DNA of 64,000 nucleotides from Planctomycetota bacterium (GTDB taxonomy: Bacteria > Planctomycetota > JAZDJP01), in NCBI GenBank assembly GCA_043803805.1, contig JAZDJP010000056.1, positions 11,680 through 75,679 on the forward strand, written 5' to 3'. This document shows, one piece after another, positions 27,197 to 43,358 of the stretch. Numbering within the stretch: position 1 is the stretch's first letter; each line of letters opens with the position of its first letter. A model generated the notes under the pieces. It worked only from the letters and a program-made list of their open reading frames with translations. It had not been told where the DNA came from and did no database searches. The translations under genes and the position numbers were made by a program.

Positions 27197-27232
27197 GTGA
27201 AATGTCGAGTGCCGAATTCCGAATAAAATTCA
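27197..27232. repeat. copy 1 of short intergenic repeat family R1 (GAAATKYCGARTGYCGAATTYCGAATR)
   Basis: The sequence tgaaatgtcgagtgccgaattccgaataaaattc lies directly upstream of the nadC start. It is related to copies at 27966, 43266 and 43325. Confidence 0.6.
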
Positions 27233-27345
27233 ACTCATAATCGCCGGAACGCATTATATTCTCCAATCCGGCCGGTTGCCTTTGAATTTCGAAAGTGGAG
27301 TTGTAGAATATCGGCAACGGGGGCGGGAAGATTCCGAGGTGCTCT

Positions 27346-27672
27346 TTGCTGATAATCGTACGGTCGAAAGCGGAGCCGGTGACGTTGGAGAAGGTCGCCG
27401 AAGATTTCGCGGGGTATGTCAAGGTCGTCGTGGACATGGAACGGAACATTCTGGCCGCCGGGGGGAAACGTCACATTGAGGGGGAGGAGATTCTATTGAA
27501 AGACGGCAGTCGCCAGGAGGATTTGTGGGGCGGCGGATTGGATCTGGCATCCGGCGAGATCGACTTCGATTCCATGATCAATCTCCGGCCGCGCCAGAAC
27601 CGGAGCCGTGAGGTGTTGTCGGAGGGCATACGAAATCAGATGGAAGCGATCATCCGCAACCTGCTCAAATGA
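27346..27672 (+). CDS. hypothetical small protein (108 aa)
   Basis: The clean ORF MLIIVRSKAEPVTLEKVAEDFAGYVKVVVDMERNILAAGG is translationally coupled (ATGA) to the next ORF. GC is moderately reduced at about 58%. Confidence 0.55.
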   Translation: MLIIVRSKAEPVTLEKVAEDFAGYVKVVVDMERNILAAGGKRHIEGEEILLKDGSRQEDLWGGGLDLASGEIDFDSMINLRPRQNRSREVLSEGIRNQMEAIIRNLLK

Positions 27673-27953
27673 ACGCGCAGGAATTAACCCTCAACATCGC
27701 GGTCAACCTGGGGCGTCTCGCCCGGTGGGCCATGGAGGGGAACCGGGCGCGGATCGAGCCGTTCCTGGTGGAAACCGCCGATTACATCCGCCAGTTGGAA
27801 TCAGCGCCTCGGCAACCCGGGTTTGAAAAGACATTTCGTGTTTTTTCAGTGGAGTTCGAGCGATTGAAAAACAATCTGACCCTGGATGAAATCTGGGCCG
27901 AGGATGTTCTCACCTGGGCCAACATCCTGACGCACCGGGCGAAGTTGGCGTAG
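27669..27953 (+). CDS. hypothetical small protein (94 aa)
   Basis: It overlaps the stop of the preceding ORF and shows an alpha-helical-looking composition. Confidence 0.5.
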   Translation: MNAQELTLNIAVNLGRLARWAMEGNRARIEPFLVETADYIRQLESAPRQPGFEKTFRVFSVEFERLKNNLTLDEIWAEDVLTWANILTHRAKLA

Positions 27954-27965
27954 CAGGTCGCTTAT

Positions 27966-28002
27966 GAAATTCCGAGTGTCGAATTTCGAATGCCGAATGA
28001 GG
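27966..28002. repeat. copy 2 of repeat family R1
   Basis: gaaattccgagtgtcgaatttcgaatgccgaatgagg lies between the small-protein pair and the low-GC membrane protein gene. Confidence 0.6.
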
Positions 28003-28019
28003 ATTAAGGACGCAAGACC

Positions 28020-40476: not shown

Positions 40477-41636
40477 GTTCTTTCCCTTACCATAAGAACC
40501 ATCCCTCCCGCCGCCGCCAGGGCCAGCGCCGATCCCGTCAGGAACGCCGCCGGGGCGCCGAAGGATTGCCAGAGCCAGCCGAATATGAAACTCGCCGGCA
40601 GGAGGCCGAATCCCATCACCCCGTGGTAGAAGCCGAAGGCCGTTCCGCGGAGATTGGCGGGGACGAGCGACGCCACAAGGGCCTTCTCGGCCGGTTCGGT
40701 GAGGCCGTAATAGATTCCATAGGCCATGAACAACGCAATCAGAACGGACTTGGAATCCGTGAATCCGAACGCGCCATACACCCCCGCATAGACGATCCAT
40801 CCGAACGCGATGAGCCACCGGCGGTCCACCTTGTCCGCCAGAAGCCCGCCGCCGCTCGTCGCCACGACCTTGACCACATGATGAAGCGACCAGAGGATGG
40901 CGATCCACGACGGGGAGATGCCGGTGTCCCGGAGACGGAGCAATAAAAACATATCCGAGGAGTTGCCCAGGGTGAAAAGTCCCATGATTGCAAGAAAGGC
41001 CCGGAACCCGGGGTTGAGGTCGCGCAATCGCCCGCGGGGGGGAATTCCCCGGGTTGCCGTTTCCGCGGGGGCTTTCTCCCGGAGCCCGAAGGCTAAAATA
41101 AAAATAACGAAAACGCCGGGGATGATCGCGAGCAGAAATACGGTGGCCAGGGAAAGCCCCGCCAGCGACAAAAGCATGGCCGCGACGAGAGGGCCGAGCA
41201 CCGCTCCGAAGTGGTCCATGGCCCGGTGGAATCCGTAGGCCGCCCCGCGGATTTCCGGGGGCGTCGCGTCGGCGATGAGGGCGTCGCGGGGGGCGGTCCG
41301 GAGTCCCTTTCCGATCCGGTCGCCGAAGCGGCAGGCCAGCACAAACGGCCAGGAACCGGCCAGGCCGATGAGGGGGCGGACGAGTCCCGAAAGGCCGTAC
41401 CCGCCGAGAACGAGGGGCTTGCGCCGGCCGCTCCGATCGGTCCAGAACCCGGAGGCGACCTTGAGGAGGGAGGCGGTGGACTCGGCGATGCCCTCGATGA
41501 ACCCGAGCGTCAGCGCCCCGGCCCCGAGACCGGCGAGGAATACGGGCAGGAGCGGGTAGATCATTTCGCTCGAGAGGTCCGTGAGCAGACTCACGATCCC
41601 GAGGATGACCACGGTGCGGGGGATGGCGCGTATCAT
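40470..41636 (-). CDS. MFS transporter
   Basis: A 388-aa product with 12 predicted TM helices and MFS signature loops (GxLxDRxGRR-like: WTDRSGRRKPLV; FGDRIGKG). Confidence 0.8.
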   Translation of the reverse strand: MIRAIPRTVVILGIVSLLTDLSSEMIYPLLPVFLAGLGAGALTLGFIEGIAESTASLLKVASGFWTDRSGRRKPLVLGGYGLSGLVRPLIGLAGSWPFVLACRFGDRIGKGLRTAPRDALIADATPPEIRGAAYGFHRAMDHFGAVLGPLVAAMLLSLAGLSLATVFLLAIIPGVFVIFILAFGLREKAPAETATRGIPPRGRLRDLNPGFRAFLAIMGLFTLGNSSDMFLLLRLRDTGISPSWIAILWSLHHVVKVVATSGGGLLADKVDRRWLIAFGWIVYAGVYGAFGFTDSKSVLIALFMAYGIYYGLTEPAEKALVASLVPANLRGTAFGFYHGVMGFGLLPASFIFGWLWQSFGAPAAFLTGSALALAAAGGMVLMVRERTT

Positions 41637-41720
41637 CGAAATGTCTTGCGGGAGTTTTCGTTCACTGTTATAAGAACGGTATAGGAATGGCGGCGGAAAT
41701 CAAGGGATTGGTGCGGGCTC

Positions 41721-42545
41721 ATGGCTGATAAAATCCGGATCGGAATCATGTCCTCCCTCAGCGCGGCGCCCTACCGTTACGGGCTATCGCGGATGACGGA
41801 TCGAATTGTGTTGCATGTCGCGGAGCCGGCGGCTCTTGCGGAGGATCTCCGGGCGGACCGTGTGGACGCGGCGCTCATCCCTTCCATCGAATATTACCGG
41901 ACCACGGGGCTTGGCGCCCTCCCGGGCATGGGGATTTCCTCGCGGGGGAAAATCCGGAGCATTCGTCTCTACCACCGCGTGCCGCCCGCGGACGTGCGCG
42001 CGCTTATGCTGGACGCGCGGTCGCGCACGTCGGCGGTCTTGGCCCGGCTCATTCTCAAGGAGCGGTATGGCGCCGTTCCTCGGGAGGTGTTCGAGGCGAA
42101 GTCCGGCGATCCCGTTCCGGAACGCGCCGACGCCTGGCTTGTCACCGGGAATGCGGCCATGATTGGGAATGCGGACATTTCGTATCTCGATCTGGGTGAG
42201 GAGTGGCAGCGGCTTACGGCGTTGCCCTTTGTGTATTGCCTTTGGGCGGTCAAGGCGGATCGGTTTTTCGAGGGGCTGCTCAAGTTCATCTCACGCGCCA
42301 CGGCCGTGGGACTCGATGCCATTCCCGAAATCGCCCGGGAGGAGGCGCCGCGCCTGGGGCTGACGGTGGCGGAATGCGCGGATTTTATGCGGGATGTCGT
42401 GATTTATGATTTCGGGGTGAACGAACGCTCGGGGCTTGCCCTTTTCTACAAGTATGCCGTTCGCATGAAGGAGGCCCCCGTGGGACGCGAGATGAAATTC
42501 TATCAGGCCGCGTCGGCGTCCGGATATCATCCGGCGATCAAGTAG
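41721..42545 (+). CDS. mqnA: menaquinone (futalosine pathway) biosynthesis protein MqnA/MqnD family (chorismate dehydratase-like)
   Basis: A 274-aa product. The N-terminal IRIGIMSSLSAAPYRYGL matches the MqnA LRIGxIxYLNxxP signature. The periplasmic-binding-protein-like fold length fits. Confidence 0.6.
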   Translation: MADKIRIGIMSSLSAAPYRYGLSRMTDRIVLHVAEPAALAEDLRADRVDAALIPSIEYYRTTGLGALPGMGISSRGKIRSIRLYHRVPPADVRALMLDARSRTSAVLARLILKERYGAVPREVFEAKSGDPVPERADAWLVTGNAAMIGNADISYLDLGEEWQRLTALPFVYCLWAVKADRFFEGLLKFISRATAVGLDAIPEIAREEAPRLGLTVAECADFMRDVVIYDFGVNERSGLALFYKYAVRMKEAPVGREMKFYQAASASGYHPAIK

Positions 42546-42578
42546 CCGGGGAAACGAATATCTGTGGTGTGATGGTCC

Positions 42579-43250
42579 ATGTTCTTCATCCTCCCGGTGG
42601 GTGACGACAATCCGCGTCGGCATTTTCCCGTTGTCAACCTTTTCCTCATCGCGGCCAACGTCGGGGTTTTCCTGTTCTACGCCTTCGATACGCCCGACCG
42701 GGCCGAATGCTTCATTCTCCGGTGGGGGTTGGTCCCCGCCTCGTGGCGGCCGGAGACTCTGGTCACCTCGATCTTTCTCCACGGGGGCATTGCCCATCTT
42801 CTGGGCAACATGCTGTTTCTCTGGATCGCCGGGGATAACGTCGAGGATCGCGTCGGGCACATCCGGTATCTGTTGCTGTACCTTTTTCTTGGCGTGGCGG
42901 CCGGCGCGGCCCATGTGATATTCAATCCCGCCTCGCTCCTCCCGTGCGTGGGGGCCAGCGGCGCCATATCGGGGGTCCTGGCGGGGTATCTGGTCCTTTT
43001 TCCGGGGGCGCGCATCCGGTTCGCTTTCATATTTGTCATTTTCCGGCTGTTTTCGTTTCCCATGCCGGCCCTTGTCGCCATCGGGTTCTGGTTTTTGGAG
43101 CAGGTGTTTCTTGCGCATCTGGCGCGGGTGGAGGCCGTAACCCAGGTCGCCTACGACGCCCACATCGGCGGCTTCTCGGCGGGATTCATCATCCTGCTCG
43201 CGGCGCGGATGACGGGAATGGTGAAGGGGGGGACGCGCAGACGCGGATGA
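42579..43250 (+). CDS. rhomboid family intramembrane serine protease
   Basis: A 6-TM protein with GASGAISGV (GxSG) and a downstream His in a TM segment (AYDAHIGG). Confidence 0.85.
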   Translation: MFFILPVGDDNPRRHFPVVNLFLIAANVGVFLFYAFDTPDRAECFILRWGLVPASWRPETLVTSIFLHGGIAHLLGNMLFLWIAGDNVEDRVGHIRYLLLYLFLGVAAGAAHVIFNPASLLPCVGASGAISGVLAGYLVLFPGARIRFAFIFVIFRLFSFPMPALVAIGFWFLEQVFLAHLARVEAVTQVAYDAHIGGFSAGFIILLAARMTGMVKGGTRRRG

Positions 43251-43265
43251 CGCGACCCGTGTCAT

Positions 43266-43358
43266 GAAATTTCGAATGCCGAGTGCCGAATTTCGAATAA
43301 ATTCGACATGCAGGACCTGAATTGATTCGGCATTCGGAATTCGACATTCGGCATTTCA
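43266..43358. repeat. inverted pair of R1 repeat copies (copies 3 and 4) forming a long imperfect palindrome between convergent genes
   Basis: Arm 1 is gaaatttcgaatgccgagtgccgaatttcgaata at 43266-43299. Arm 2 at 43325-43358 is gattcggcattcggaattcgacattcggcatttc, the reverse-complement orientation of the family. The pair lies between the rhomboid stop (43250) and the hisB stop (43382). Confidence 0.6.

Follow-up and report, generated by a model that had tools for sequence, protein, structure and literature searches.

We analyzed a 64,000-nt stretch of a Planctomycetota genome (GTDB lineage JAZDJP01; assembly GCA_043803805.1, contig JAZDJP010000056.1, positions 11,680 to 75,679 of the forward strand), referred to here as the window, and found that a dispersed intergenic repeat in it, R1, consists of short tandem arrays of a 7-nt unit, CGAATKY. 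When three related arrays are counted with it, six of the seven arrays in the window lie directly behind the stop codon of the upstream gene and on its coding strand. R1 almost certainly belongs to the class of intergenic heptanucleotide simple-sequence repeats of prokaryotes, a class that has already been described, so that only the unit sequence is new. From position and strand we tentatively read the arrays as an RNA element of the 3' untranslated region (3' UTR), a reading to which we give somewhat less than an even chance of being right.

Results

The repeat is a set of tandem heptanucleotide arrays

A first-pass annotation, made from the letters of the window, had described R1 as a novel intergenic family of about 30 nt with four copies. 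All four copies (c1 to c4, Table 1) were present where it had placed them, and a pattern of three units, CGARTNYCGARTNYCGAAT, matched the window 7 times against 0.02 expected from shuffles, with none of 100 shuffles reaching 7. The repeat is real, dispersed and intergenic, but there is no 30-nt consensus element. Each copy is instead a tandem array of 4-5 units of 7 nt (28-35 nt in all), arranged head-to-tail in strict 7-nt register, with a head GAAATNN followed by three or four units CGA(A/G)TNN. The program Tandem Repeats Finder (TRF) likewise gave period 7 for the window arrays.

Searching the window for NGA(A/G)TNN-type runs of at least 3 units, for which shuffles gave 0-0.04 runs, uncovered three arrays that the first reading had overlooked: a5 and a6, with NGAATGN units, and a sister array with a GARAC core (GARACNN). 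This brings the total for the 64 kb to at least six arrays of the GAAT type, plus one of the GARAC type.

Across the 15 non-head units of c1-c4, the core letters C, G, A and T were invariant, and at position 4, 12 units had A and 3 had G. Spacer bases were nearly random at both positions, with an entropy of 1.5-1.6 bits each, and the unit consensus can be written (C)GAAT-K-Y, i.e. CGAATKY. Spacers differ in every copy within this genome, so that there is no master copy, and no unit in the window contains a GGG run. Because the spacers have diverged while the core is intact, we infer that the core is held by selection in this genome.

Two other ways of reading the arrays were discarded. Arrays c2 and c3 begin with ATGAAAT, and c1 and c4 with GTGAAAT, giving mini-ORFs of the type "MKFR..." and "VKCR..."; the 7-nt period shifts the frame with each unit, no Shine-Dalgarno sequence precedes them, and arrays elsewhere lack a start codon, so the likeness is that of a DNA repeat read in frame. 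Mimicry of a tRNA T-loop (TTCGAAT) was ruled out since the bases at T54 and psi55 would be the variable ones. No tRNA genes were found in the window.

The arrays follow stop codons on the coding strand

Pfam calls on the flanking genes bore out that the copies are intergenic, and all seven arrays lie between, or at the extreme ends of, Pfam-supported genes. Six of the seven share the coding strand of the gene upstream and are found no more than 25 nt 3' of its stop codon (P = 4.5e-5 for at least six of seven, on a simple gene map of the window). Thus c3 begins 15 nt past the TGA of the rhomboid gene, in the sense orientation, c4 begins 24 nt past the TAG of hisB and is sense for hisB, and a5 begins 1 nt past the TAA of the gene with an RF-1 domain. 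Array c2 begins 12 nt past the TAG of a 94-aa open reading frame (ORF) and ends 19 nt ahead of the ATG of a 141-aa ORF. The head of a6 includes the TAA of the VWA-domain gene, and the array ends 30 nt short of the start of dcd (31224, minus strand). The uvrB ORF extends into the GARAC array, inside which its TGA (28588-28590) falls. The genes that precede the arrays are unrelated housekeeping genes. Lying on the coding strand and starting 0-25 nt past the stop, the arrays would make up the first ~30 nt of the transcribed 3' UTR and would act at the RNA level.

The arrays could instead be a double-stranded DNA operator or architectural site, in which a DNA-binding protein occupies adjacent heptads cooperatively, or which serves a nucleoid protein or gyrase in the manner of bacterial interspersed mosaic elements (BIMEs). 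The omega repressor of pSM19035, for instance, has the heptad WATCACW. Protein sites typically show such a pattern of constant core and free spacers, the surroundings of c1 are a divergent promoter region, and direct or inverted heptad arrays are, according to summaries of the literature, established operators (TTTTGAT at ctxAB with ToxR, the SARP-LAL heptamers and parS of pSM19035). We nevertheless consider a duplex site quite improbable: a strong dependence on which strand the upstream gene occupies would not be expected of it, stops and not promoters are what precede six of the seven arrays, and the genes that they follow are unrelated housekeeping genes.

Arrays with the same core occur in many phyla

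To place the repeat in a wider setting we scanned one genome per species (596 billion bases, both strands) with the pattern GAAATNNCGARTNNCGARTNNCGAAT and recovered at least 119 loci, against about 4 chance matches by our estimate from the information content of the pattern. With these, and with the additional arrays in the window, the four copies are no local coincidence. The loci listed span Planctomycetota, Verrucomicrobiota, Acidobacteriota, Bacteroidota, Chlorobiota/Ignavibacteria, Chloroflexota, Gemmatimonadota, Omnitrophota, Firmicutes and others; here and below, figures for the public samples are those among the matches listed. Spacers vary by genome (GA, TA, TC, GC, GT, TT and more), and the commonest units elsewhere are of the GAC and TAC types. 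In a metagenome sample searched with the looser pattern AAT(NNNGAAT)4, which is seeded on GAAT only, the base before GAAT was free (C in only 19%), and in 82% the first spacer base was T or G. This makes (GAATKNN)n the wider family and the CGAATKY of the window one of its sub-types. A Rho utilization (rut) site, with YC dimers every 7 nt, was also considered; it fits the KY-C spacers here and does not fit the commonest GAC and TAC units elsewhere.

The number of units was sharply limited. Among the species-genome loci, 64, 48, 4, 2, 1 and 2 arrays had 4, 5, 6, 7, 8 and 9 units, respectively, and the metagenome sample held 107 arrays with 5 units versus 12 with 6. For viral contigs we compared GAAT with control cores of the same composition (GATA, AGTA and TAAG), a design in which array size and orientation, and not counts, are comparable between cores; here 108 GAAT arrays had 5 units and 23 had 6.

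The position relative to stop codons was examined in the same samples. In the species-genome loci, the median distance from the stop of a same-strand upstream gene to the head of the array was 4 nt, and 45 of 63 such gaps were 40 nt or less, as against median gaps of 154 nt for opposite-strand upstream neighbors and 72-80 nt for downstream neighbors. By a frame-based measure on CGAAT-seeded loci, 109 arrays had an ORF of 100 codons or more upstream, and the gap was 10 nt or less in 57 of them. Stop adjacency was also seen in low-GC genomes, where spurious ORFs are no issue (loci L013, L018, L049 with three arrays, L065, L097 and L113).

Orientation was equally one-sided. Within 5 nt of a stop the metagenome sample had 29 sense and 6 antisense arrays on the GAAT seed, and all TRF period-7 GAAT-type arrays, drawn from a census of 1.62 Mb of fetched loci for arrays with at least 3 copies, gave 95 sense versus 26 antisense at 12 nt or less. 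Sense/antisense counts in viral contigs were 37/14 for GAAT, 16/12 for GATA, 15/17 for TAAG and 27/12 for AGTA, so that a control core was biased as well. The rule of stop codon and coding strand thus held in three independent public samples, in many phyla and in viral contigs.

One locus from a cultured organism, Chitinophaga niastensis DSM 24859 (L049; NZ_PYAW01000001.1), carries three GAAT-type arrays in 8 kb, each 0-3 nt past a stop codon. Arrays are also present in the closed genomes OY782765 (Melioribacteraceae) and OZ245849 (Bythopirellula).

The inverted pair c3/c4 folds, single arrays do not

A roughly 90-bp imperfect palindrome had been noted between the convergent rhomboid and hisB genes, and we confirmed it at 92 bp: it is the convergent inverted pair c3/c4, set between the rhomboid stop at 43250 and the hisB stop at 43382. 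The 131-nt RNA between the two stops folds at -48.7 kcal/mol (z -3.9) on the plus strand and at -45.3 kcal/mol (z -3.1) on the minus strand. The arms form 5-bp core helices broken by spacer mismatches and can pair in several 7-nt registers; over 24 nt they are 88% complementary in two registers, and the spacers of c3 and c4 match at chance level only. Folded singly, each of the seven arrays was unstructured (z -0.8 to +1.1 versus shuffles), and five of the seven have no inverted partner.

Pairing in the public loci was strongly directional. An inverted partner lay downstream of the array in 32 species-genome loci and upstream in 1, convergent array pairs outnumbered divergent ones 48 to 6, and 43 of 86 stop-adjacent arrays had an inverted partner within 120 nt. 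Convergent gene junctions were slightly enriched for arrays (0.25 versus a background of 0.19), with co-directional, convergent and divergent junctions near the background ratio. Behind lone arrays, the next 70 nt were structured (z < -2) in 16% versus 0% of coding controls, a weak difference (p = 0.05).

The stable fold and the convergent pairs would suit a bidirectional intrinsic terminator in which the inverted-pair hairpin is the only functional unit and lone arrays are decayed halves. Canonical terminators in the 18-kb region scanned barely exceeded chance (27 versus 19 +/- 4), as if another 3'-end device were needed there. We regard this explanation as improbable. There is no U-tract or T-run after either arm on either strand, and a terminator consensus scan called nothing at 43260-43360; the c3/c4 hairpin is not a canonical intrinsic terminator. 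Most window arrays, moreover, are unpaired and unstructured. In paired arrays of the public loci with mixed spacers, the arms mirrored each other at the variable positions in 0.85 of cases versus 0.84 expected from composition (p = 0.3), so that the hairpin is not visibly maintained by compensatory change. A need for a hairpin alone would also leave unexplained why the GAAT strand so consistently supplies the 5' arm, and the near-background ratio of junction types counts against it as well.

A search of the window against Rfam 15 gave no gathering-level match; the palindrome returned sub-threshold miRNA-hairpin noise, scoring about 18-22 bits where the gathering level is 70-79. Of the canonical terminator-like sites in the 18 kb scanned, the best, a 14-bp G+C-rich hairpin with a T-rich tail, lies at 30635-30665 (plus strand), between the start of uvrB and the end of dcd.

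A proposed 3'-UTR role weighed against neutral slippage

A serious possibility, if an unlikely one, is that the arrays are neutral or selfish microsatellites, i.e. runs made by polymerase slippage, which would favor a 7-nt unit, that have no function and survive only where they are harmless, behind stops and in the stop-rich orientation that prevents C-terminal extension. In most prokaryotic genomes no class of long simple-sequence repeats is reported to be more abundant than the heptanucleotides, and polymerase slippage has been proposed as their origin (Mrazek 2007, as summarized in PMC4679880 and PMC4692102). Strains of Cyanothece differ by indels in 7-nt steps (PMC4679880). Period 7 was likewise dominant in the genomes that carry the arrays (610 arrays in the TRF census of carrier loci, as opposed to 14 with period 6 and 52 with period 8), the viral contigs commonly held heptad arrays with other cores too, and the array at uvrB lies inside a duplicated gene tail, to which it supplies the stop.

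Several observations weigh against the 3'-UTR reading. The spacer was uniform within the array in 68 of 122 matches listed, which fits recent neutral slippage. Judged with a crude ORF caller, only between about a quarter and a half of the arrays adjoin a stop. In the window, c1 breaks the stop-codon rule as the sole array with no same-strand stop before it: it lies 2 nt from the ATG of nadC (27196, minus strand), on the non-coding strand of that gene and ~120 nt upstream of the DUF5674 gene, with a promoter-like site downstream of it at 27282-27309. Among unbiased arrays, stops in all three frames were found on 52-53% of sense (GAAT) strands versus 22-25% of antisense strands, i.e. twice as often, so that part of the orientation bias could reflect selection against read-through and not selection for function. 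The want of a U-tract behind c3/c4 and the unmirrored arms of paired arrays count on the same side, as does the degeneracy of the cleavage motif considered in the Discussion (RN↓WU), which about 1/16 of tetramers fit and the antisense unit often fits too. Taken as a function in its own right, an all-frame stop cassette is partly supported only; it would describe that half of the unbiased arrays, but not c1-c4.

Slippage, for its part, would homogenize core and spacers together, and decay would erode both, neither of which agrees with window spacers that are random beside a core intact in 15 of 15 units. It should leave a monotonic tail of array sizes and not a sharp limit at 4-5 units. Units without stops (GAATTAC, GAATGCC, GAATGTC and GAATTTC) still start 0-8 nt past the stop of a gene, the same core recurs over many phyla, and most of the comparable repeats of Xanthomonas sit between the same genes in two species (PMC4692102).

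Relation to known repeats

The first-pass annotation compared R1 to repetitive extragenic palindromic (REP) elements and BIMEs or to MITEs (miniature inverted-repeat transposable elements). Part of the REP/BIME comparison holds: like those of Enterobacteria and Pseudomonads, the arrays are about 35 nt long, extragenic and placed at gene 3' ends, with inverted pairs and a hairpin at the level of the pair, although in the window c3/c4 is the one inverted pair. A REP is, however, an imperfect palindrome in itself, has a GTAG-type head and is linked to REP-associated tyrosine transposases (RAYTs), whereas a window array taken singly repeats its unit directly in tandem, does not fold by itself and has the head GAAAT. 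The functional analogy with REP/BIME is that of a stabilizer or barrier at the RNA 3' end. The MITE comparison failed, since a repeat search around all arrays found no terminal inverted repeats or target-site duplications, the sole direct repeat being the duplicated tail of uvrB. R1 does not fit the definition of a REP and is not a MITE.

Spread as a mobile element of either type, by a transposase such as a RAYT, is accordingly the explanation that we find very improbable, dispersed and extragenic as these arrays of about 30-35 nt are, and even with conserved array flanks at several sites in some other genomes (L037/L098, L008/L028 and L103, described below). Besides the missing terminal repeats and target duplications, there is no master copy among the differing spacers of this genome, the single copy is not palindromic, and no transposase was noticed beside the arrays in Pfam scans that took in the ORFs near arrays only.

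The units of the cyanobacterial STRR heptamers, CCCCAGT, TTGGTCA and CAACAGT, are unrelated in sequence to CGAAT. The long simple-sequence repeats of Mrazek and the STRR heptamers do resemble the window arrays in being over-represented, intergenic, dispersed 7-nt tandem repeats; the class is described statistically in such surveys, and the summaries of them link neither the stop-codon rule nor a GAAT core to it. The CGAAT array strings had no match in the papers searched. The claim of novelty therefore stands for the unit sequence and falls for the heptanucleotide class, which had been described before (PMC4679880, PMC4692102).

The closest described relatives are the intergenic heptameric repeats GGGAATC of Xanthomonas and GGGGAYT of Nostoc (Rehm et al. 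2015, PMC4692102). The Xanthomonas repeats are tandem 7-nt units, part conserved and part free, with a mode of four units, and form 70-75 convergent inverted pairs per genome (PMC4692102), a pairing that recurs in the GAAT arrays. Copies downstream of genes are on the coding strand, either overlapping the stop codon or within 50 bp of it, and upstream copies are on the non-coding strand, like c1; they are transcribed, and about 16% are found between convergent genes and 7-8% between divergent genes (PMC4692102). When the unit is written GAATCGG, it shares GAAT with the CGAAT unit in the same frame. The taxa differ, Xanthomonas and Nostoc being Gammaproteobacteria and Cyanobacteria while the GAAT arrays occur in a Planctomycetota metagenome-assembled genome (MAG) and many other phyla. 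So does the base composition of the unit: that of Xanthomonas is G-rich and was read by its authors as a G-quadruplex former (PMC4692102), whereas CGAATKY has no G-tract. As the CGAAT arrays behave alike without one, the G-quadruplex explanation cannot apply here and cannot be general. For the Nostoc heptamers an effect on expression via a partner has been proposed.

The TAACTGA direct repeats of marine Beggiatoaceae, Cyanobacteria and Bacteroidetes (MacGregor 2015, PMC4679880) are likewise strand-specific intergenic heptamers in 2-6 copies, scattered over distant phyla. They sit mostly just before start codons in the forward orientation (PMC4679880), whereas the GAAT arrays sit just past stop codons; S1, Csp or CsrA has been suggested to read them post-transcriptionally (PMC4679880). 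At four of our public loci (L015, L078, L082 from the Chlorobiota MAG JAEUSP01, and L228), CGAATGY arrays adjoin (CAACTGA/ACTGACC)-type heptamer arrays resembling the published TAACTGA repeats, so that different heptad families co-occur in a single intergenic region.

Array positions, neighboring genes and other observations

Table 1. Heptad arrays, the inverted pair and nearby genes in the window. Positions count from the first nucleotide of the 64,000-nt window.
Feature	Position	Strand	Units or basis
c1	27199-27226	+	GAAATGT CGAGTGC CGAATTC CGAATAA (head + 3 units)
c2	27966-28000	+	GAAATTC CGAGTGT CGAATTT CGAATGC CGAATGA (5 units)
c3	43266-43300	+	GAAATTT CGAATGC CGAGTGC CGAATTT CGAATAA (5 units)
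c4	43323-43357	-	GAAATGC CGAATGT CGAATTC CGAATGC CGAATCA (5 units)
a5, extra NGAAT-type array	39992-40019	+	GAAATGG TGAATGC GGAATGA TGAATGA
a6, extra array	31255-31282	-	TAAATGA TGAATGA TGAATGC GGAATAG
GARAC-core sister heptad array	28569-28603	-	GAAACTT GAAACTT GAGACTG GAAACTG GAAACAA
Imperfect palindrome	43264-43360		c3 + 22-nt loop region (43301-43322) + c4
nadC	26291-27196	-	Pfam
DUF5674 gene	27346-27672	+	Pfam
94-aa ORF	27669-27953	+	Stop TAG, upstream of c2
141-aa ORF	28020-28445	+	Downstream of c2
uvrB	28588-30609	-	Pfam
dcd	30664-31224	-	Pfam
VWA-domain gene, 850 aa	31280-33832	-	Pfam
RF-1-domain (ArfB-like) gene	39460-39990	+	Pfam
Rhomboid gene	42579-43250	+	Pfam, stop TGA
hisB/IGPD	43382-44455	-	Pfam, stop TAG

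The window has a G+C content of 62.6%. Two of the copies had been said to flank a lower-GC segment next to uvrB. Arrays c1 and c2 do flank the DUF5674 gene and the 94-aa ORF, where GC is 0.54-0.59, but the lowest GC (0.45-0.48, at about 27800-28600) lies to the right of c2. The DUF5674 gene and the 94-aa ORF overlap by ATGA (27669-27672) and form a small two-gene unit bracketed by the directly oriented c1 and c2. Two other small ORFs lie directly beyond arrays in low-GC stretches (0.45-0.51 versus 0.63 for the window): the hydrophobic 141-aa ORF behind c2 and a basic 127-aa ORF behind a5 (40082-40465, minus strand). Neither had a Pfam or NCBIfam match, and both were possibly acquired recently.

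The tail of uvrB contains a 36-nt direct duplication (86% identity; 28506-28541 and 28628-28663) that flanks the GARAC array, and both copies encode a TWKPAL(E/A)GR.K peptide. The array seems to have arisen or expanded inside the gene end, along with the duplication of the tail.

Short tandem repeats of period 8, TTTCGTGA, TCAAGTCN and TCATGACC, were found at 28476-28502, 40082-40116 and 24179-24209 in intergenic or gene-end positions, and two of the three share an intergenic region with a heptad array. The hisB ORF codes for 357 aa, of which residues 194-337 only make up the IGPD domain; the N-terminal half has no Pfam match and overlaps a long ORF (43987-45072), and hisB probably starts much further downstream. 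The rhomboid protein is about 62% identical to its nearest relatives, and the contig of the best of them is not syntenic with the window.

In some other genomes the arrays are contained in longer dispersed repeats or have conserved flanks. Loci L037 and L098 (Clostridia) have the common 5' flank AAAATGCCGACCGCAGGTCCC, two Melioribacteraceae loci (L008 and L028) have a common 3' flank, L103 has two copies (at 2719 and 4162) with identical mixed spacers and a 40-nt flank, and a group of Verrucomicrobiota loci (L009, L052, L099 and L117) has a common decayed 3' extension. These flanks suggest lineage-specific composite elements or sRNA-like units.

Discussion

The arrays probably arise and resize in 7-nt steps via replication slippage. 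If they do act in the 3' UTR, a lone array may present an unstructured, purine- and A-rich single strand, with 4-5 identical sites in 7-nt register, to a reader specific for single strands. Candidate readers are an RNase E/G-type endonuclease, whose motif RN↓WUU fits GA↓AU(K), or OB-fold or cold-shock-type proteins covering 7 nt each, and how the upstream message is processed or decays would depend on such a reader. RNase E recognizes RN↓WUU, a GA↓AUU site is known in RprA, and the stop codons of Salmonella show an excess of RNase E sites (PMC5222698); several cleavage sites in Synechocystis lie exactly 2 nt past stop codons (PMC8682795), and CspB binds as one protein per heptamer (reviewed in PMC4679880). 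Given how degenerate RN↓WU is, the link to RNase E is a lead only, and so is that to cold-shock proteins. Convergent arrays could pair via their cores into a long, register-tolerant hairpin that would close both transcripts, either as a common barrier at the 3' end or as a factor-independent stop, as in REP/BIME pairs, and that could block 3' exonucleases.

Should the arrays be neutral microsatellites after all, the finding would be an ordinary one, although annotation would still profit from it, since an array can provide a stop codon or displace one, as at uvrB. Heptanucleotides are reported to be the commonest long simple repeats, with no function established for them, and the window offers a clean case, with a core left untouched, spacers randomized and arrays that hug stop codons. 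The stop-adjacent, coding-strand pattern points to an RNA-level role at gene 3' ends, including in lineages such as Planctomycetota, in whose window here classical terminators are few.

A bolder proposal, and one that we hold to be rather unlikely, is that (GAATKNN)4-5 is a pan-bacterial, phage-borne and strand-specific 3'-UTR signal at the stop codon, read in 7-nt register by a conserved protein specific for single strands, either an RNase E/G-type nuclease or an OB-fold/cold-shock-type protein. If it were true, it would give a functional reason for the excess of heptanucleotides in prokaryotes, and the G-quadruplex reading of the Xanthomonas repeats would be incidental.

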